From Candidatus Saccharimonadaceae bacterium (lineage in GTDB: Bacteria; Patescibacteriota; Saccharimonadia; Saccharimonadales; Saccharimonadaceae), in NCBI GenBank assembly GCA_041907345.1, contig JAYRHL010000007.1, positions 31,933 to 95,932 on the forward strand: a DNA stretch of 64,000 nt, in the 5' to 3' direction. Below the pieces are notes generated by a model. The model made no database searches. It had not been told where the DNA came from and saw nothing but the letters and a program-made list of their open reading frames with translations. Shown here one piece after another: positions 5,198 to 61,041 of this stretch. Made by a program: the position numbers and the translations under genes. The stretch's first letter is position 1. Every line of letters begins with the position of its first letter.

Positions 5198-6760
5198 CTA
5201 CATCCCAGGCATCCCACCATAATCATTGATGTTGGATCGAATCGGATTTTCTTGCAGCCGCCACAATATTCCAAATGCCACCACAACCAAGGGAATGATG
5301 TATATGAATATTGGGGTCAGAGCATAATTATACGATTCGATTACTGCACTGCGGACTCCAGGAGGCAACGCCGCCACCATATCAGGTGTTAATGATCCAC
5401 GACCGCCAGCACCAACCGGCATGCCGGGCAAACGTTGCGTCAGCTGATGCTGTAGATTGGCCACAAACAGCGCGCCAATTGCAGCTGCACCGAACGTCAT
5501 ACCCATTTGTTGGAAGTAGCGGTTACCGGCTGTTGCAACAGCAAACTCATCACCCTGGTATTCATTACGGATGACCAACATCAGAATCTGCATACTCAGA
5601 CCCATTCCCAGGCCCAACAGACCGACGTACACCATAATGACACCGACAGATGTCGCTGGAGTCATTGTATTCATCAACCCCAGGCTAATTGCAATAACCA
5701 CCATGCCAGTGAGCGGTGCCCATTTGTAGCGTTTCGTGCGTCGTTCGATAACCATGACGAACATACCGGTTATGAACATACCGAATACCATTGGCATCAG
5801 GAACAGTCCCGATTTGGTCGCACTGGCACCAGACACCATTTGTAGGTATGTCGGCAGATACGCAAGCGCCCCCATCATAACCACGCCAAATACCGTCAAC
5901 GCTGCTGTCGTTACAACAAAGTTGCGATTGCGGAATAGTGACCACGGAATGATTGGTTGGGCGGCATCACGTTCGACAAACGCGAATGTCACACCGCACA
6001 GCACTGCTCCGACGAGCAGCAGCACAATCACCGGTGAGGTCCATGCGTACTGTGTACCGCCCCATGATGTCGCCAAAACAATAGCAACAGATGCCAGGCT
6101 GAGAAGTACGATACCGGCGTAGTCAATCTTTGGCTTTTCCAGGCGATCAGAAATTTTTGGCACCAATTTTAATGCCGCAAAGAGCGCTAGACCGCCAACC
6201 GGCACATTCAGCCAAAACACCAGCCGCCAATCAATGGACGTAAAAAATCCACCGATAAACGGACCGACGATGAACGACCCACCAAAAATGATGGCGAAAT
6301 ATGGCGTCACTCTTTTGAGCTGATCCAAATCCGGAAGCATCTTGGCCAAGATTGTCTGAGCGAGAACCATCAGTCCGCCGCCGCCGAATCCTTGAATGGC
6401 ACGACCGACGATCAATGCAGTCATCGTATGTGCAGAAATACACACAGCCGATCCGGCGATAAACACCAGGATCGATACAACAAACAACTGCTTATGACCG
6501 AACAGATCGCCCATTTTGCCACTGATTGGCAGCACAACGGTTGCAGCCAGCGCATACGCCGTGGTCACCCACAACATGTGCTCGACACCGTTCAGCTCAC
6601 CGACAATTGTCGGCAGGGCAGCACCCAGAACCGATTGGTCCAATGCACCTAGAAACATACCGACGAACAGACCGACAATAGCCCATTTGATCTTTTTGGG
6701 GATTGGTACCCAGTTGGCCGCTTTTGGCTTTTTAGGCTTTCTAGCGATTTTGAACGCCAT
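5198..6760 (-). CDS. MFS transporter, DHA2 (EmrB/QacA-like, 14-TMS type)
   Basis: LDQSVLGAALPTI, GKMGDLFGHK and RAIQGFGGGG motifs. About 14 hydrophobic spans. ATG at residue 14 of the ORF has an upstream SD. Confidence 0.85.
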   Translation of the reverse strand: MAFKIARKPKKPKAANWVPIPKKIKWAIVGLFVGMFLGALDQSVLGAALPTIVGELNGVEHMLWVTTAYALAATVVLPISGKMGDLFGHKQLFVVSILVFIAGSAVCISAHTMTALIVGRAIQGFGGGGLMVLAQTILAKMLPDLDQLKRVTPYFAIIFGGSFIVGPFIGGFFTSIDWRLVFWLNVPVGGLALFAALKLVPKISDRLEKPKIDYAGIVLLSLASVAIVLATSWGGTQYAWTSPVIVLLLVGAVLCGVTFAFVERDAAQPIIPWSLFRNRNFVVTTAALTVFGVVMMGALAYLPTYLQMVSGASATKSGLFLMPMVFGMFITGMFVMVIERRTKRYKWAPLTGMVVIAISLGLMNTMTPATSVGVIMVYVGLLGLGMGLSMQILMLVIRNEYQGDEFAVATAGNRYFQQMGMTFGAAAIGALFVANLQHQLTQRLPGMPVGAGGRGSLTPDMVAALPPGVRSAVIESYNYALTPIFIYIIPLVVVAFGILWRLQENPIRSNINDYGGMPGM

Positions 6761-35222: not shown

Positions 35223-35250
35223 TTGACATTTCACCCCCATTTGCTATACT
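35223..35250 (+). promoter_or_regulatory. rplJL promoter TTGACA-N16-TATACT with TGn
   Basis: TTGACAtttcacccccatTTGCTATACT. Confidence 0.6.
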
Positions 35251-35256
35251 TTTGAA

Positions 35257-35469
35257 TAGCATTACACCAAAGACCGTAGCTGTCGAAAGACTTAATCCGC
35301 TACCGAGGCGTAAAACTACCACCATTGTTTTATCCACCCGAACGGTCTTTGATTACACTGCGAGTATCAAAGACCTTTCTTTTATTCTCGGGTGTTGTCA
35401 GGACCTAATCGGTGTAATGAATAACCTTAACAACTCGGATCGAACAAAATTTAACCTGGAGAATCTTGA
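35257..35469 (+). promoter_or_regulatory. Structured rplJ 5' leader (probable L10-leader-type autoregulatory element)
   Basis: Long-range pairs ATTACACC (35261-68)/GGTGTAAT (35411-18) and AAAGACCG (35269-76)/CGGTCTTT (35343-50). Its position matches known L10 leaders. Confidence 0.45.
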
Positions 35470-40222: not shown

Positions 40223-41692
40223 ATGAATAGTATGGTGAAGGGGAAATCAGATGCGCCGCAAACGGCGCTGTATCGCAAATACCGTAGTCGCTCGCTCGAC
40301 GAGGTTGTTGGCCAGTCTCAAGTGACTGATATTTTGCGTCGTAGCCTCAAACAAGGCAAAATCGCCCACGCCTACCTGTTAACCGGCCCGCGCGGTGTTG
40401 GCAAAACATCCATCGCCCGTATCCTGGCGCACGAAATCAATAATTTGCCCTATGATGGCGAGCACACTCATCTAGATATTATCGAAATCGATGCTGCCAG
40501 CAACAATGGCGTTGATGACGTTCGTGACCTCCGCGACAAAGTCCAGTTAGCGCCGACATCCGCTGCTAAAAAGGTTTATATCATCGACGAAGTCCACATG
40601 CTGAGTAAACCTGCATTCAACGCGCTACTCAAAACCCTCGAAGAACCACCAGCGCACGTCGTATTCATCCTGGCCACAACCGACCTCCATAAAGTCCCCG
40701 CAACGATCATCAGCCGCACGCAACATTTTGCATTCCACACTGTCAGCCCGGCAAACGTCATTGCCCATTTGAGGCACATCGCAACTGCCGAAGGCATCAC
40801 TGTCAGCGATGATGCGCTGGCCGCAATCGCCGCACGTGGCGAGGGCAGCTTTCGCGATAGTATCAGCCTACTAGACCAACTGTCGGGATTTGCCGATGAC
40901 AAACAAGGCATCACACTGGAACTGGTCGAATCAACTCTAGGCCTCGCCCCACACGACGCCGTTGCATCACTACTGGATCTGGTGGGGGATAGGGACGTCG
41001 CAGGTATTATCGCCAAACTAGATACCCTTGAAATGCAGGGTATTCAGCCTGTCGTTCTGGCCGGTCAATTGACCGATGCCGTACGCAAACAATTGCCTGA
41101 ACACCCTCAACTGGTCAACCTGCTAGACGGCCTACTGTCTGTTGCAAATTCGCCACAGCCCCAGTTAAAACTCCTGACTGTCCTGGTCGGCGCAATCAAA
41201 CCGAAAACTGCCGCCGCACATACCAGCAAAACACCATCTGTCGTGATAGAAGCCCCGGTACCGAAACCTGCAGCACTGAAAAAACCAACAACACCGGCAC
41301 CGGCGCCAGTTGCCGTCGCCGAACCGACGCCCATTGCGCAACCAAAACCAGTGAAAAAATCATCAACGCCTGTTTCGTTTGACTGGGCGGCACTGGTTGC
41401 AGAACTCAAACAGCATTCGGTTGCGGTCTATAGTGTTATCGCCAAATGTGAACATGATTTTGCTGACAATACACTGACGATCTATGCTGGTCGCAAGTTC
41501 AACAAAACAAAACTGGACGATACACGATATTTGAGCCAACTACATAATGCGTTGACCGCAGTTGGTGCCGAAAATGTCGAAGTCATCACACTCTCCGAAA
41601 CAAAACCGCCAAAAGACGAGAAATTAGCAAAAGTTACTGCTATCATGGGTGGAGGAAAACAAGTGCAGGTGGGTGAAGAGGAAAAGGTATGA
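40223..41692 (+). CDS. dnaX: DNA polymerase III subunit gamma/tau
   Basis: GPRGVGKTS P-loop, IIDEVHMLS, SRTQHF. Confidence 0.9.
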   Translation: MNSMVKGKSDAPQTALYRKYRSRSLDEVVGQSQVTDILRRSLKQGKIAHAYLLTGPRGVGKTSIARILAHEINNLPYDGEHTHLDIIEIDAASNNGVDDVRDLRDKVQLAPTSAAKKVYIIDEVHMLSKPAFNALLKTLEEPPAHVVFILATTDLHKVPATIISRTQHFAFHTVSPANVIAHLRHIATAEGITVSDDALAAIAARGEGSFRDSISLLDQLSGFADDKQGITLELVESTLGLAPHDAVASLLDLVGDRDVAGIIAKLDTLEMQGIQPVVLAGQLTDAVRKQLPEHPQLVNLLDGLLSVANSPQPQLKLLTVLVGAIKPKTAAAHTSKTPSVVIEAPVPKPAALKKPTTPAPAPVAVAEPTPIAQPKPVKKSSTPVSFDWAALVAELKQHSVAVYSVIAKCEHDFADNTLTIYAGRKFNKTKLDDTRYLSQLHNALTAVGAENVEVITLSETKPPKDEKLAKVTAIMGGGKQVQVGEEEKV

Positions 41693-43038
41693 GTGCCAAA
41701 CAGGTAGAGGCAAAGATTCCGCCGCAAAACGTTGACGCCGAGATGAGTCTGCTCGGTGCTGTTTTGATTGACGAAGAAGTCCTCGCTGACGTATCTGAAA
41801 CCGTCGATGCACGGGATTTTTACGACAAACGCCATGCTGATATTTATGACGCGATGATGCGCCTGTTCGAACACCGCAAACCAGTTGATTTGTTGACATT
41901 GACTGATGAATTAAAGAAAAAAGGTCTGCTAGAAGACATCGGCGGATCAAAATATCTGACCGAACTGACCAATTATGTCCCGACTGCTGCGCACGCCGTT
42001 ACCTATGCCGAAATGGTCGCGCAAAAGGCTGTTCGCCGTCGTCTGATTCGCGCCAGTAGCGACATCACCGAACTGGGTTATAACGAAGAATCATCTATCG
42101 AAGAACTGCTGGGCAAAGCCGAGGCAGAATTGTTCGCCGTCAGCGACCAGAACCTCAAACAAGACCTCGCCAGCCTAGAATCAATCTTGCTGGAAAGTTT
42201 TGACCGTCTCGAGGAACTGCACCGCAACAAAGGACAACTGCGTGGTGTCAAAACAGGCTACCGCGACCTGGATAATATGACCGCCGGTCTGCAACGCAGC
42301 GACCTGATCATCCTGGCCGCCCGTCCTGCGATGGGTAAAACCACGCTGGTCACCAACCTGGCATACAACGTCGCGACGATTAATAAACAGTCTGTGCTGT
42401 TCTATAGCCTCGAGATGAGCAAAGAGCAGTTGGTCGACCGTATGTTGTCTGACGTCAGTGGTGTCGATTCATGGAATATCCGTACTGGTAATCTGAGCGA
42501 CGAAGATTTTGCCAAACTGTCCGAAGCGTCGGGCGAAATGGCTGAAGCGCCGATATTCATCGACGACACACCGGGTTTGTCTGTCCTGGAAATCCGCACC
42601 AAAGCCCGCCGTGCTGCGCACCAAGCGCCACTGGGATTGATCGTTATCGACTATTTGCAGTTGATCCAGGGTACTGGCCGTAGTGACGGTAACCGCGTCC
42701 AAGAGGTGAGTGAAATCAGCCGTGGACTGAAGTTGCTGGCGCGTGAATTGAACGTCCCGGTCATTGCGCTGTCACAGCTATCGCGTACTGTCGAATCGCG
42801 TACACCACAGGTCCCACAACTGTCAGATTTGCGTGAATCTGGGTCAATCGAGCAGGATGCCGATATCGTCATGTTCATCTATCGTGAAGCGTACTACAAC
42901 CCAGATACTGATCGCGAAAACATCACCGATCTGATTATTGCCAAGCACCGTAACGGTCCGACCGGTAAAGTCGAGCTATACTTCCACCCAGAACGTTTGC
43001 GATTTATGTCGTTGGACAAAAAGCATAGTGATCAATAA
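41689..43038 (+). CDS. dnaB: Replicative DNA helicase
   Basis: ARPAMGKTT Walker A, IDYLQLI, SQLSR, RESGSIEQDAD. ATGA overlap with dnaX. Confidence 0.93.
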   Translation: MSAKQVEAKIPPQNVDAEMSLLGAVLIDEEVLADVSETVDARDFYDKRHADIYDAMMRLFEHRKPVDLLTLTDELKKKGLLEDIGGSKYLTELTNYVPTAAHAVTYAEMVAQKAVRRRLIRASSDITELGYNEESSIEELLGKAEAELFAVSDQNLKQDLASLESILLESFDRLEELHRNKGQLRGVKTGYRDLDNMTAGLQRSDLIILAARPAMGKTTLVTNLAYNVATINKQSVLFYSLEMSKEQLVDRMLSDVSGVDSWNIRTGNLSDEDFAKLSEASGEMAEAPIFIDDTPGLSVLEIRTKARRAAHQAPLGLIVIDYLQLIQGTGRSDGNRVQEVSEISRGLKLLARELNVPVIALSQLSRTVESRTPQVPQLSDLRESGSIEQDADIVMFIYREAYYNPDTDRENITDLIIAKHRNGPTGKVELYFHPERLRFMSLDKKHSDQ

Positions 43039-43071
43039 CCTGATTTCTCATTTTAAAAAATGACATATTAT

Positions 43072-43543
43072 GTTCTTCTAGCTCGAAGAACCAAGAGCCC
43101 TCTTTTTGCATCGTCAAAAAGAGTCAAAAACCTCGTGACTGCTTCCCTCCACCGGGACAATCTCATGTAAAAAGCTGGTTGCTGCGGAACTCCCTGCGGT
43201 CGGTCTCGAATATTTATTCATAGTTACGGATTCTCGACAGGTCCTCGCAAATGATTCCACCTTTTTACACTCAATTTTCTCGGGTCGGTCCAGATGTCAC
43301 ACTGCGGCTCGCGGGGTCCGGGGCCCCTGCAGAATCCCGAGATGGATGATGGCTGATGAGCGGAATAGTTCGCGAGGACCTGTCATTTTTAAATAACTAT
43401 AAAAATGAAAAATGACCGACCAACGGGAGTTCCGGAGCGACCGTTCAACAGGCAACAGACTTCACGGCGATTCGAAGCCGCCCCGGGACTTTTGCTTCTT
43501 TTGGTCACAAAAGGAGGCTGTTGGTTCTTCCAGCTAGAAGAAC
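43072..43543. repeat. 472-bp imperfect foldback (long inverted repeat) with hairpin termini
   Basis: Terminal 21-mers are reverse complements (1 mismatch). Nested complementary blocks lie at 43186-205/43414-433, 43236-248/43372-384 and 43278-284/43336-342. Confidence 0.7.
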
Positions 43544-43625
43544 AAAATGTTGTTTCGTATCCAAAATCATCAATCATTTGATAACTTTGGGCACGAGACA
43601 GGAGAATCCGTCTCGGCCGCAGCGG

Positions 43626-43970
43626 TTAGGCCGCTTGCTGGTCGACGAGCGACATGATGCGCGCCAAACGCGACACGCGTCCACGATCGTTGCAGATGTG
43701 ACGCAGGTACTTCGCGATGATGGCAGTCGCACGCTGAACGTTCTCGTCGGCGAAGTCGTCCTTGTGCATCGGGTTGAACCGATCCCTGGCAGTAGAAATG
43801 CCAGTCAGCACATAGGTGACAACGGCGCTCGAGAGGTCGTTGACGTAGCGAGAGCACACAGAGCCCTGGAAATGACACACCTCGGCAATCGCGCCTTCGG
43901 TTGCGACCATCACCTCGTGCAGAACGCCCTGGTTCAGACCGTACACGTGATTCTCCTGTCTATTAATCAT
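43626..43970 (-). CDS. Small hypothetical protein (114 aa; GTG alternative at 43982)
   Basis: Own promoter at 44020-44048. GC-rich mini-gene. Confidence 0.45.
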   Translation of the reverse strand: MINRQENHVYGLNQGVLHEVMVATEGAIAEVCHFQGSVCSRYVNDLSSAVVTYVLTGISTARDRFNPMHKDDFADENVQRATAIIAKYLRHICNDRGRVSRLARIMSLVDQQAA

Positions 43971-44019
43971 GTGGTTTCCCACAGGACTTCATATTCATCG
44001 CTGAATATGTGTAATTAAT

Positions 44020-44048
44020 ATTATAGCATAAACATAATATTTATGCAA
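44020..44048 (-). promoter_or_regulatory. Promoter TTGCAT-N17-TATAAT with TGn
   Basis: The minus strand reads TTGCATaaatattatgtttaTGCTATAAT. Confidence 0.5.
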
Positions 44049-44102
44049 TATCTGCGCTATTCACCGTACTGTACATCGGTGATGTTTGCTATAATGATGC
44101 CA

Positions 44103-45548
44103 ATGGCAAAGTTTCAGCTGTCTGACTTTTTCACTTATAAATACCGCTATCAAATCGGCTACGGTTTGATCGTACTGCTGTTCGTCGCACTCCTGGCTGT
44201 TGCCGGGCTGTTTGTCCCGGGCGGACTCAGCAAGGGCGAGATGGCAACATTCGTCCAGACCGCATCCCTGGACCGCGAAAACCCTGCGACATTGGCAATA
44301 CCAAACCTGCCGTTTGCACTAGTCCAGCGAGCCAGCATGGAATTGTTCGGACCAAGTATTTTTGCATTCAAGCTGCCTGCGCTGATTTGTGCGTTTATAG
44401 CCGGAGTCGGCGCCGTCCTGCTGTTGCGTCGTTGGTTCCGTCCGAACATTGCGATCCTCGCAACAGTAATTATGATCACGACCGGACAGTTCCTGTACGT
44501 TGCCCAATCGGGATCGGCCAGTATCACGTATATCATGTGGTCGGTTTGGTTGTTGCTTGCGGCAACAATGATCACATCGTCTCCGCGACACAAACGATTC
44601 TGGAAAGTACTGTTTTTTGCCGTCATGCCGCTCAGTCTGTACACACCACTCAGTATTTATCTAGTACTGGCGATATTCAGCGCAGGTATATTGCACCCAC
44701 ATGTTCGTTACGTTCTGAAACGAATGCCTCGATCACACCTGATTACTTTGACCGCTATGAGCCTCGTCATTGTGGCGCCCCTAGGATATTTGCTGGTCAT
44801 CAAACCACAACTAGCGCTACAGTTACTCGGCGCTCCGGCATCGTGGCCGCCGAACTTGTGGGCCAACCTCAAGATTTTGGTCCAACAATATTTGAACTTT
44901 ATTTCGCCAGAAAGTGGCGTATTGATGACGCCCGTTCTCGGCTTAGGATCCATTGCGCTGATCCTCATTGGCGTATGGCAACTATTCACAATACGTTATA
45001 CCGCACGTAGCTACACGTTGACCGCATGGCTGCTGTTGCTGTTCCCGATACTGTTGATCAACCCTGTATTTACGAGTGTCACATTTGTACCGTTGCTGCT
45101 ACTTCTCGCTAGTGGATTGGGATATCTATTACGCGAATGGTACGGGATGTTCCCGCGAAATCCATATGCACGATTTGTCGGTATTGTTCCTCTCACTATC
45201 CTCGTCGCAGGCTTGGTTGTTACGGGCACCAACCGCTATTTTGACGGCTATCGTTACGACCCAGAGACAGCGTCGAGTTTTAACCACGATGTGAACCTGT
45301 ACAACCAACACATCAATGCACAGAACATTCCAAAACTTGTCGTGACACGCTATGAACTGCCGTTTTACATTGCGCTCGTCCGCTATGACCACAAAACACC
45401 ACCACTGATCCTGACGACCCCACCGACCGGTGGCGTGTTTGCTGCCACCAAAGCCGCCCATTCAAAAGTAAAAGACGCCCAGATTAGTCGTATCATCACA
45501 ACTGATGTCAGCGGGGATAGCGACCGGTTCTACATCTATAATAAGTAG
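44103..45548 (+). CDS. Polytopic membrane protein, GT-C-type glycosyltransferase-like (ArnT/PMT resemblance)
   Basis: About 11-13 TM segments with a C-terminal soluble domain. TGCTATAAT lies 7 nt upstream of the ATG. Family call is from architecture only. Confidence 0.4.
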   Translation: MAKFQLSDFFTYKYRYQIGYGLIVLLFVALLAVAGLFVPGGLSKGEMATFVQTASLDRENPATLAIPNLPFALVQRASMELFGPSIFAFKLPALICAFIAGVGAVLLLRRWFRPNIAILATVIMITTGQFLYVAQSGSASITYIMWSVWLLLAATMITSSPRHKRFWKVLFFAVMPLSLYTPLSIYLVLAIFSAGILHPHVRYVLKRMPRSHLITLTAMSLVIVAPLGYLLVIKPQLALQLLGAPASWPPNLWANLKILVQQYLNFISPESGVLMTPVLGLGSIALILIGVWQLFTIRYTARSYTLTAWLLLLFPILLINPVFTSVTFVPLLLLLASGLGYLLREWYGMFPRNPYARFVGIVPLTILVAGLVVTGTNRYFDGYRYDPETASSFNHDVNLYNQHINAQNIPKLVVTRYELPFYIALVRYDHKTPPLILTTPPTGGVFAATKAAHSKVKDAQISRIITTDVSGDSDRFYIYNK

Positions 45549-45615
45549 ACGAAATATAGTATTATGAACATATACGCCAACGAGCCGAACACTACAGTAT
45601 AAGAGGAGAAATATT

Positions 45616-45918
45616 ATGGCTTTTGATCAAATGAAGATGCTCAACGATTTGCGTAAAGCGCAGAAAGAACTAAAAGCACAGAAAGTTGTCGTTGTTGCCG
45701 GTGGTGACGACGAAGATCCAGCTGTTGAAATCACTATCAACGGCGAACTAAAGGTTGAAAGGGTCAAGATTAACCCTGATTACGTTGACCTGGATGATAT
45801 CGAAGACCTCGAAAACAACATCGAAGTCGCTATCCGTGACGGTATGCAAAAAGCACAAGAAATTGCTGCTGAAAAGATGAAGCCGCTGATGGGCGGACTC
45901 GGCAACCTCGGTCTGTAA
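45616..45918 (+). CDS. ybaB: Nucleoid-associated protein YbaB/EbfC
   Basis: 100 aa. KVERVKINPD...EDLENNIEVAIRDGMQKAQE and the C-terminal GGLGNLGL tail. Confidence 0.85.
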   Translation: MAFDQMKMLNDLRKAQKELKAQKVVVVAGGDDEDPAVEITINGELKVERVKINPDYVDLDDIEDLENNIEVAIRDGMQKAQEIAAEKMKPLMGGLGNLGL

Positions 45919-45961
45919 TAGCGATCTAAATTAATAGGGGAGTAACTGGTAGGGACATACC

Positions 45962-46576
45962 ATGAGTGATCTGTTGCCAAAAGCACTGATTGACGTCATC
46001 GAAGACCTCGGCAGATTGCCGGGTGTCGGCGCACGCACCGCAGAACGCTATGCGTATTATTTGTTGCGCGCCAAACCAAACGTTGCCGACAAACTGGCCA
46101 CCAGCATCAACCACCTCCACGAAGGCGTCAAATCATGCCCGGTCACGTTTGCGCTGATTGATGCATCACAGGACGTGTCGCCACTGTATAGCGACCCATC
46201 ACGGGACAAAACAACCATTGCCGTTGTCGAAGAGCCATTGGATATCGTTGCCCTAGAACGCACCGGTCAATACCACGGCACCTACCATGTGCTGGGCGGG
46301 GCAATCAGCCCCATCGATGGCATCGGACCGGAACAATTACACATCCCTGAATTGATGGAACGAATCAACAGCGACAAAGTTACCGAACTCATCATTGCGA
46401 CCAATGCCAGTGTCGAGGGGGAATCAACCGCGTTGTTCCTGCAACGCCACATCAAAGATGCCGGGATCGACGTCAAAATGACGCGATTGGCACGCGGCAT
46501 CCCTGTCGGTGTCGATCTAGAATACGCCGACCAAATCACACTGTCCCACGCCCTCGAAGGCCGACGAACACTCTAA
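45962..46576 (+). CDS. recR: Recombination protein RecR (zinc-finger cysteines missing)
   Basis: LPGVGARTAERYAYYLL HhH motif and Toprim region TELIIATNASVEGESTA. Only one Cys in the whole protein. Confidence 0.9.
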   Translation: MSDLLPKALIDVIEDLGRLPGVGARTAERYAYYLLRAKPNVADKLATSINHLHEGVKSCPVTFALIDASQDVSPLYSDPSRDKTTIAVVEEPLDIVALERTGQYHGTYHVLGGAISPIDGIGPEQLHIPELMERINSDKVTELIIATNASVEGESTALFLQRHIKDAGIDVKMTRLARGIPVGVDLEYADQITLSHALEGRRTL

Positions 46577-50245: not shown

Positions 50246-50279
50246 ACCTTTCTGTTACCTAAGCGTCCGCTGAGGACTA

Positions 50280-50308
50280 TTGACTAATTATGCTTGTGGT
50301 TGTATAAT
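50280..50308 (+). promoter_or_regulatory. Promoter TTGACT-N17-TATAAT
   Basis: TTGACTaattatgcttgtggttgTATAAT. It shares TATAATAGTATTA with the promoter at 50580. Confidence 0.55.
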
Positions 50309-50376
50309 AGTATTATCGTTATCATACATGTATGTGACGAGCAATCAAAAATCCGACAACCAACGCAGGAGTCAGT

Positions 50377-50511
50377 ATGTCCCTCACACAATTGTTTGGG
50401 CGCATCATTCACCCGCACCACCGCGTCAAGCTGACTCCTGATCAGGAGACACAGCGAATCGCGAAACGACGCGAAGATCTCAGAAAGTCAGGTGTGTGGC
50501 TTGGTTACTAA
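50377..50511 (+). CDS. Possible 44-aa basic peptide (MSLTQLFGRIIHPHHRVKL...)
   Basis: GCAGGAG SD, with its own promoter and terminator. Not in the ORF track. Confidence 0.35.
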   Translation: MSLTQLFGRIIHPHHRVKLTPDQETQRIAKRREDLRKSGVWLGY

Positions 50512-50535
50512 CCAGCCATAACGTCGGCGAACATT

Positions 50536-50565
50536 ACAGCCCCGGTCATCACGACCGGGGCTGTT
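50536..50565 (+). terminator. 12-bp GC hairpin
   Basis: ACAGCCCCGGTC/GACCGGGGCTGT. Confidence 0.5.
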
Positions 50566-50579
50566 CATATCTGTAGATA

Positions 50580-50608
50580 TTGCATTTTTATCATGATTAT
50601 GCTATAAT
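50580..50608 (+). promoter_or_regulatory. Promoter TTGCAT-N17-TATAAT with TGn
   Basis: TTGCATttttatcatgattaTGCTATAAT. Confidence 0.55.
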
Positions 50609-50644
50609 AGTATTACTCGCACATTGAGAAAAGGGAGAAGCGAA

Positions 50645-50872
50645 ATGGCAGATACGTTCGCCGATATGGCGTCCGACGCCAGTCAGGATGACTACGCGAC
50701 CGCCGAATGGCTGACCACCCCCGAGGGTTGGCAGGCACAGGCGGACATGTGGGCACGGCACGACGCGGTCGATGAACTGATTCAACGATCAATCGACTGT
50801 CTGGACACCGATCTGATGCCGTACGTGCCTTCGGCATACGCCAGGGCCAACACGCAGCTGATGCTGTTCTGA
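50645..50872 (+). CDS. Small acidic hypothetical protein (75 aa)
   Basis: AAGGGAGAAG SD before the ATG at residue 8. Confidence 0.45.
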   Translation: MADTFADMASDASQDDYATAEWLTTPEGWQAQADMWARHDAVDELIQRSIDCLDTDLMPYVPSAYARANTQLMLF

Positions 50873-50888
50873 CACTAACTCAATAGCG

Positions 50889-50917
50889 AAATACCCCTGT
50901 CGACGACAGGGGTATTT
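50889..50917. terminator. Bidirectional terminator
   Basis: ATACCCCTGT/ACAGGGGTAT 10-bp stem. Confidence 0.6.
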
Positions 50918-50932
50918 GCATACTTGATATAC

Positions 50933-60966: not shown

Positions 60967-61041
60967 TGGCTGGGATGGAGGGATTCGAACCCCCGAATGC
61001 CAGGACCAAAACCTGGTGCCTTACCACTTGGCGACATCCCA
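60967..61041 (-). tRNA. tRNA-Gln (anticodon UUG), CCA encoded
   Basis: Manual cloverleaf: acceptor UGGGAUG/CAUCCCA, anticodon stem CCAGG/CCUGG with loop UUUUGGU, T arm GGGGG UUCGAAU CCCUC. Close to E. coli tRNA-Gln. Confidence 0.92.

Follow-up and report, generated by a model that had tools for sequence, protein, structure and literature searches.

The stretch of DNA analysed here, called the window throughout, spans 64 kb, and the relatives of its DnaB protein are Candidatus Saccharibacteria (TM7, Patescibacteria/CPR), the best species representative sharing 84% amino-acid identity. Non-coding DNA is very scarce in the tiny genomes of CPR/Patescibacteria, for which hardly any lineage-specific structured RNA or small mobile element has been described. 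In the region of interest, dnaB (41689-43038, + strand) is preceded by dnaX and followed by a convergent gene of 106 amino acids on the minus strand (43626-43946), a PMT_2-family glycosyltransferase gene, ybaB and recR. Across the clade (window 40223-46576, contigs L010-L031), dnaB and the PMT_2 gene sit between dnaX and ybaB-recR, a placement that splits the widespread dnaX-ybaB-recR cluster, and the gap between a 171-aa gene and dnaX ranges from about 130 to 2700 nt among relatives. The 106-aa gene is real, since it has 107-aa homologs (P0121-P0128) at 56-98% identity, and it is conserved only in the window's own clade; no similar ORF was found beside the units described below at other loci.

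Between dnaB and this small gene lies a discrete self-complementary module at 43072-43543. An earlier note on this DNA had described it as an imperfect foldback with hairpin termini, and the observation was confirmed, far above chance. An inverted-repeat scan of the window recovered all of the repeats that had been listed, with 40-nt termini (43067-43106 and 43509-43548) 88% complementary to each other and nested blocks at 43177-43205/43414-43442 and 43236-43258/43362-43384 that were 83% and 87% complementary, respectively. The hairpin motif GTTCTTC-N6-GAAGAAC was found at both termini as claimed, and these were its only 2 matches in 64 kb (chance expectation, 0.02). When 43060-43555 was folded as a single strand, the free energy was -210 kcal/mol for the + strand (z = -12.3 relative to dinucleotide shuffles) and -215 kcal/mol for the - strand (z = -11.4), and none of the 100 shuffles folded as well. 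The G+C content of the module is 0.50, compared with 0.48 for the window. It was also correctly stated that no ORF longer than 62 aa lies wholly inside 43072-43543, and that the module fills a gap between convergent genes. An ORF of 165 aa with TTG as its start codon (43521-44018, +) opens within the terminal hairpin on the right, on the strand opposite to the small gene; it matches no family and is probably spurious.

Two divergent units and their fold

Two long-diverged copies of an element of about 165 nt, pointing away from each other, make up the module; each has two tail hairpins, T1 (inner) and T2 (outer). The core of the left unit, measured from P1 to P1, occupies 166 nt at 43135-43300 with its functional strand on the minus strand (cmsearch, 149 bits) and forms 42 of 48 consensus pairs, while that of the right unit occupies 165 nt at 43320-43484 on the plus strand (171.5 bits) and forms 45 of 48. 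Their 5' ends face each other across a GC-rich junction of 19 nt seen in the sequence at 43301-43319, and the GC-rich apex that the note had singled out, GGGGTCCGGGGCCCC, covers this junction plus the 5' strand of P1 of the right unit; several other copies carry a GGGGTCY leader before P1. On the left (- strand), T1 lies at 43100-43123 (CTCTTTTTG-CATCGT-CAAAAAGAG) and T2 at 43072-43091 (GTTCTTC-TAGCTC-GAAGAAC). On the right (+ strand), T1 lies at 43494-43518 and T2 at 43524-43543 (GTTCTTC-CAGCTA-GAAGAAC). The two T2 hairpins form the left and right boundaries of the module.

Each arm folds to the consensus by itself, the left at -72.6 kcal/mol and the right at -86.3 kcal/mol (z = -4.4). Identity between the arms is 58%, comparable to that of copies from different species, and a single unit of about 230 nt in contig L014, located between the 171-aa gene and dnaX, is about 70% identical to both of them. 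The variable helices were too diverged to assign the two arms to orthologous A and B types across loci. At helices that vary between copies, intra-arm pairs were formed at 31/34 and 28/34 positions (about 87%), whereas in the same variable columns inter-arm pairing reached only 27/68, which is about chance. The same fold is kept in single units and in pairs whose members are split by a gene (L097, L100). The earlier proposal of one rod-like ncRNA built from two arms of about 235 nt is therefore not borne out: the arms are inverted homologous units that fold on themselves, and the single long hairpin is a thermodynamic by-product of two inverted homologs. A conspicuous long foldback may, as a general caution, be merely two homologous units in inverted orientation.

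To collect homologs, positions conserved in three copies were turned into a search pattern, which matched 11 metagenome loci, and a profile search at these loci distinguished full units, partial units and inverted pairs. The alignment used for the fold comprised 14 full units from Saccharibacteria metagenomes, and the consensus was obtained with RNAalifold. Identity between copies is 43-67%, and the core length from P1 to P1 was 162-168 nt in 14/14 units. Folding and comparing homologs, as the note had suggested, revealed strong covariation within units, with compensatory double changes in 36 of the 48 consensus pairs. In this alignment 89.2% of the cells paired, compared with 31-46% when the 3' partners were slid by 1-3 columns; the covariation score was 0.653 versus about 0.13 for the control, and 0/500 shuffles reached any of the five measures. 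The core is predicted to consist of a closing helix P1, a helix P2, a long hypervariable helix P3 and two further helices, the short conserved P4 and P5, with an optional apical hairpin P6. The blocks GGAAUAAUUCGCGAGGACCUGUC, GACCGACCAACGGGAGUUCCGCAGCGACC and GAAGCC are invariant among the 14 units, and the unpaired invariant blocks that P4 and P5 surround are AAUAAU, CCU, CGACCAACGGGAGU and GCA. In L014, P3 is a perfect 27-bp duplex (4152-4178/4256-4282), the longest uninterrupted stem of the family.

Pairing is also kept between positional orthologs. L094 and L098 share a site of the element, flanked by cysS and an AI-2E transporter gene, with CysS only 54% identical; between L094R and L098, 14 pairs had changed on both sides and were still paired, 2 had changed on one side and were still paired, and 4 were broken. 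Between the window and L111, a close syntenic relative, 7 substitutions fall at positions paired in the window, and 6 of them preserve the pair by a change to G.U or A.U on the forward strand. In the consensus helices of intergenic units, G.U outnumbered A.C by 30:10 (p = 0.003, composition-corrected), which points to a functional strand that runs from the centre to the terminus (+ for the right unit, - for the left). The fold of each unit is thus kept by selection on the centre-to-terminus strand, with covariation support equal to that of many accepted Rfam families. Where copies belong to a mobile element, part of their covariation may come from selection to stay competent for transposition and not from a function for the host, and the strand bias is compatible with single-stranded DNA as well, in which G.T is tolerated, so it does not prove RNA.

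T1 (CUUCUUUUG/CAAAAGAAG) starts 9-11 nt past P1 in 15/16 copies and is followed by T2, and its stem covaries in distant copies. In a terminator scan on the functional strand, T1 was terminator-like in the right unit of the window and in both units of L094, and in L090 and L095 the GC-rich stem of T2 leads into a U-rich stretch. A promoter search found no convincing sigma70-like promoter upstream of the units; in the window, L096 and L111 the 5' ends lie so close together (about 19-22 nt) that two upstream promoters would not fit between them.

Distribution, empty sites and inversion in place

Nine metagenome contigs (L001-L009) come from the same strain and are 100% identical to the window at this locus, and are thus uninformative on covariation and orientation. 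In at least 13 related species dnaB lies directly upstream of the PMT_2 gene with a gap of only 17-80 nt; these are empty sites, and the roughly 1 kb of the window that holds the element and the small gene is accordingly lineage-specific. Another empty site was found where fmt abuts a DUF5663 gene in syntenic relatives of L095. A covariance model of the core, R1, detected all copies at 119-178 bits, together with decayed partners in L096 and L100, and gave no match in 21 other dnaB loci. Copies neighbour dnaB in the window, L110 and L111, dnaX in L014, cysS and the AI-2E transporter gene in L094 and L098, mscL and a DUF4352 gene in L090 and L097, rpsP and rnc in L091, dprA in L093, MacB and DUF6159 genes in L096, and fmt and the DUF5663 gene in L095. 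This is a low-copy family located at different intergenic sites in different lineages and, as far as seen, limited to Saccharibacteria. At five independent loci with two copies, the copies were always divergent with the tails pointing outward. In L091 (1186-1453, +) and L093 (1536-1803, -) a partner of about 270 nt stands back-to-back with the full unit; the two partners are similar to each other, share only the T1/T2 tail with the unit and are missed by the covariance model, and each represents either a copy in advanced decay or another RNA that ends in this tail.

Following the note's suggestion to look for further copies, empty sites and target-site duplications, we found the empty sites described above, no extra copy in the 64-kb window (blastn, nhmmer and cmsearch) and no target-site duplication visible at four boundaries (including those of the window, L094 and L111), the recJ boundaries being too diverged to judge. 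The long form is rare: the search pattern matched once in each of two contigs of 148 kb and 220 kb, and about one further long-form copy occurred in about 480 kb of unselected related DNA. Viral contigs gave 0 matches to the conserved pattern, blastn against phages and plasmids gave none, and no near-identical copies were found. No transposase or shared partner ORF was present at the examined loci apart from syntenic housekeeping genes, and the window module has no gene for a recombinase or a Y1 transposase within about 8 kb.

L110 and L111 are syntenic with the window, and L111 carries a pair of units at the same locus. All flanking genes of L111 match the window in reverse with 73-91% identity, whereas the two arms match it forward with 95.0% and 91.4% identity (the left-unit core is 95% identical to its L111 ortholog), and L110 agrees with L111 in orientation. 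Homology of the element to L111 starts at 43071, with the flanks in the opposite orientation, and flank homology resumes at about 43553. Flank homology to both L110 and L111 ends at the outer edges of the terminal T2 hairpins, which vindicates the boundaries drawn in the note and identifies 43072-43543 as a discrete module that was inverted, or excised and re-inserted, in place. Thus, the module from T2 to T2 has flipped in place between close relatives. The flip is not an assembly artefact, since the exact repeats at the ends (13 nt at most) are too short to mislead an assembler and each orientation is present in independent assemblies; the two outer hairpins of L111 differ from each other. 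Only one orientation was seen in the nine assemblies of the window strain, opposite to that in L110 and L111, and no invertase gene is nearby.

Short copies within recJ

R1 also matched L095 at 5282-5428, within recJ and on the opposite strand. In the protein, the match corresponds to amino acids 185-234, between NPKR..DYPDE and LYPFLDLPGVGVAF. RecJ orthologs occur in two forms, one of 614-647 aa with a homologous insert of 50-60 aa and one of 545-566 aa without it, and the insert-less forms include the closest in sequence (81-82% identity), so that presence of the insert does not follow RecJ similarity. The conserved peptide SAEL of the insert is the antisense reading of the invariant GAGUUCCGCAG block. 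R1 found the short form in 7 insert-bearing recJ genes and in 0/2 insert-less ones. It measures 138-147 nt, with P6 reduced and the tails absent.

Aligned without the model, the recJ copies (n = 8) yielded a consensus of 62 pairs, of which 38 are compensatory; 91.7% of the cells paired, versus 37-46% in slid controls. G.U exceeded A.C by 49:11 on the strand antisense to the mRNA (p = 7e-5, composition-corrected). This covariation and strand bias indicate that selection preserves the fold even within a translated gene, and does so on the strand opposite to its message. Many lineages carry such a short form without tails in recJ, in frame and antisense to the gene. In about 0.65 Mb of Saccharibacteria DNA, recJ was the sole intragenic target met. 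Two RecJ proteins have other insertions, a second insert of about 27 aa past the DHHA1 region in P0093 and one of about 13 aa near the C-terminus in P0031, and RecJ seems to tolerate insertions in this phylum.

Nature of the family and neighbouring small genes

The earlier note could not match the module to tmRNA, RNase P, 6S RNA or a hammerhead ribozyme; no match to a known RNA family was found in Rfam 15 either, whose families include 6S, SRP, RNase P, tmRNA, OLE, GOLLD, ROOL, HEARO, raiA and ribozymes. At the gathering score the whole window yielded only a ribosomal protein L10 leader (35249-35390, +, 57.5 bits) and a tRNA (60970-61041, -, 63 bits), the region 42900-43750 gave only two chance-level matches at E <= 10, and the 12 homolog-bearing loci gave only L10 leaders; such leaders are present in L011, L014, L018 and L030. 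No published description of such an element in Saccharibacteria or CPR was found in the literature searched. A riboswitch or 5' leader was discarded, since it is the 3' end of the adjacent gene that most units face. SRP RNA, considered because the L014 unit lies upstream of dnaX, and 6S RNA were rejected since their motifs do not match, Rfam is silent and copies within recJ are incompatible with a housekeeping RNA. Like the element, 6S and SRP 4.5S RNAs are long irregular hairpins that end in a terminator; they measure about 110-190 nt, conserve an internal or apical region and number 1-2 per genome. However, the motifs of the element fit neither SRP domain IV nor the 6S central bubble, and those RNAs show neither presence/absence between relatives nor in-frame copies in genes. 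Retron, DGR and omega/bridge RNAs were rejected as well, there being no reverse transcriptase, TnpB/IscB or IS110 gene nearby.

Two described families come closest. The Rickettsia palindromic elements (RPEs) are, in the account given in PMC10969869, small palindromic repeats of a reduced-genome bacterium that often lie in frame within genes (Ogata et al. 2000, as summarised in PMC10969869 and PMC3184786). The present family resembles them in being small, non-coding and palindromic, in residing in a host-dependent bacterium with a reduced genome, and in having both intergenic copies and in-frame copies in a housekeeping gene that add a conserved peptide; in-frame insertion with insert-less orthologs, which characterises RPEs, is seen in recJ. 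For neither is a transposase known, and the copies of both are old and diverged. There is no sequence relationship between them, however, and only one intragenic target (recJ) was seen here, compared with dozens for RPEs. The Saccharibacteria long form is also larger (about 165 nt plus a tail of about 70 nt), more intricately folded, low-copy, often arranged in divergent pairs and endowed with invariant unpaired blocks, and its selected structure is antisense to the host gene. The other family is bcr1 of the Bacillus cereus group, which PMC3184786 summarises as about 155 bp long, variably distributed among genomes and transcribed, with compensatory changes that keep the RNA structure; it is multi-copy, with 5-bp direct repeats on either side (Okstad 2004 and Klevan 2007, as summarised there). 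The two are alike in length (about 155-165 nt), and both the non-conserved distribution among relatives and the compensatory changes were found here; bcr1 is the model for an element that combines mobility with a structured RNA. The Saccharibacteria element differs in its lack of direct repeats and its low copy number, and its transcript is a predicted one.

The foldback MITE/PATE-type element considered in the earlier note describes the module in part. Like MITEs, and like the REPINs and PATEs that IS200/IS605-type or RAYT transposases mobilise, it is non-coding, has terminal inverted repeats (40 nt, 88%) or hairpin termini and lies between convergent genes; it is moreover discrete, variable in site, inverted in place and present as a short form in recJ. 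On the other hand, target-site duplications, many similar or near-identical copies and a related autonomous IS were all lacking in the window, contigs and flanks examined, and the rarity of the long form is unlike classical MITEs. The absence of a target-site duplication is shared with IS200/IS605 derivatives and the long hairpin formed by an inverted doublet with REPINs, whereas the ends here are inverted and not co-oriented as in IS200/IS605-derived PATEs and REPINs. No cognate transposase was present in the examined flanks, the copies are few and diverged by 35-45%, a 165-nt fold with conserved loops is unparalleled among these elements, and the arms of the Saccharibacteria pair are not kept mutually complementary.

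Taken together, we regard the units as probably a new family of structured non-coding elements, formerly or currently mobile, akin to Rickettsia RPEs and Bacillus bcr1 and most likely acting as RNA. We infer that RNA is the functional form, and likewise infer its role and the way in which the element moves. The family would have spread, or would still spread, as a non-autonomous mobile element in the manner of RPEs and bcr1, and the large foldback would be a side effect of two inverted copies. Each unit may be transcribed outward and ended by its tail hairpins to give a structured RNA of about 240 nt, whose conserved loops could bind a protein or another nucleic acid; the strand bias and the terminator-like T1 are indirect evidence for such transcription. 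A tentative and less probable version holds that the units constitute a new Saccharibacteria-specific class of functional RNA, a rod of about 165 nt with invariant loops that the host keeps at one or two loci, with a structurally selected antisense copy in recJ; it could serve, for example, as a protein-binding scaffold, a ribozyme or a guide-like RNA. More speculatively, an RNA system linked to repair or recombination could be imagined, in which the free RNA would be complementary to recJ mRNA at the invariant GGGAGUUCCGCAG block.

It is also conceivable, if rather unlikely, that the units are non-mobile genes for trans-acting ncRNAs, often present as two divergent paralogs, in which case shifts in location would result from rearrangement and the recJ insert from an old one-off capture. 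The long form is indeed low-copy, is kept at cysS/AI-2E across deep divergence with compensatory change in place, and is 91-95% identical between the window and L111 compared with 73-91% for the flanking genes, and the invariant unpaired blocks and terminator-like tails on the favoured strand would fit such genes. What speaks against them is presence/absence at at least 6 unrelated sites among fairly close relatives, a precise module inverted in place, an in-frame recJ copy whose presence does not follow RecJ similarity, the existence of decayed partner copies, the lack of a detected promoter, and the fact that most dnaB and recJ loci of Saccharibacteria are without the long form.

An element that works at the DNA level, another option raised in the earlier note, is improbable. 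In that case, a folded strand or cruciform would be a site of recombination, inversion or replication, for example an inverton or the substrate of an IS200/IS605- or REPIN-type transposase. Both orientations of the whole module occur at one locus, its termini are hairpins and mutual inverted repeats, the absence of a target-site duplication is as with IS200/IS605, a strand-specific G.T bias fits single-stranded DNA, and the recJ structure is on the non-mRNA strand. Nevertheless, a 165-nt fold with many invariant unpaired bases exceeds the needs of known hairpin sites of recombinases or transposases, the nine window-strain assemblies show a single orientation, a recombinase or Y1 transposase gene is absent within about 8 kb, and single units and tail-less recJ copies are conserved too. 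It is very improbable that the arms of about 235 nt function by pairing with each other, as one long rod or as dsRNA produced by read-through from the convergent genes. The whole module folds at -210 kcal/mol compared with -159 kcal/mol for the arms separately, and without central promoters read-through transcripts would span both arms; against this, inter-arm pairing at variable positions is at the chance level, the single units of L014, L090 and L095 and the recJ copies keep the fold without a partner, and in L097 and L100 a gene lies between the two units. A chance or recent inverted duplication without function has next to no probability, as it accounts for the inverted-repeat shape only, while arms that are 58% identical both keep the fold and at least 20 homologs show strong covariation.

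If the favoured elements act as RNA, they make up a new CPR-specific RNA class. If they are selfish DNA, elements that enter genes in frame as RPEs do arose independently in another host-dependent lineage with reduced genomes, and recJ with and without the insert offers a tractable case of how such elements enter proteins.

Several small features surround the module. The 106-aa gene has its own promoter-like block of 43 nt at 44011-44053 (-). Two small genes at 50.3-50.9 kb have strong promoters that this block matches, and at one of them (50575-50616, +) the identity is 84%, which suggests that small, GC-richer, lineage-specific genes form a family with a shared promoter. The two small genes (about 50378-50512 and 50627-50872) lie in the gap between cysS and the AI-2E gene (window 50246-50932), where L094 and L098 hold an element pair instead. 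Both have a near-consensus promoter, TTGACT or TTGCAT -N17- TATAAT ('TATAATAGTATTA'), and a GC-rich intrinsic terminator. After the 106-aa gene, at about 43575-43616 of the window, lies a conserved non-coding block, ggccgagacggattctcctgtctcgtgcccaaagttatcaa, with a GAGACGG...CTGTCTC hairpin; this block occurs twice in L111 (8331-8389 and 8774-8839), behind the small gene and behind an additional gene of 104 aa that the window lacks.
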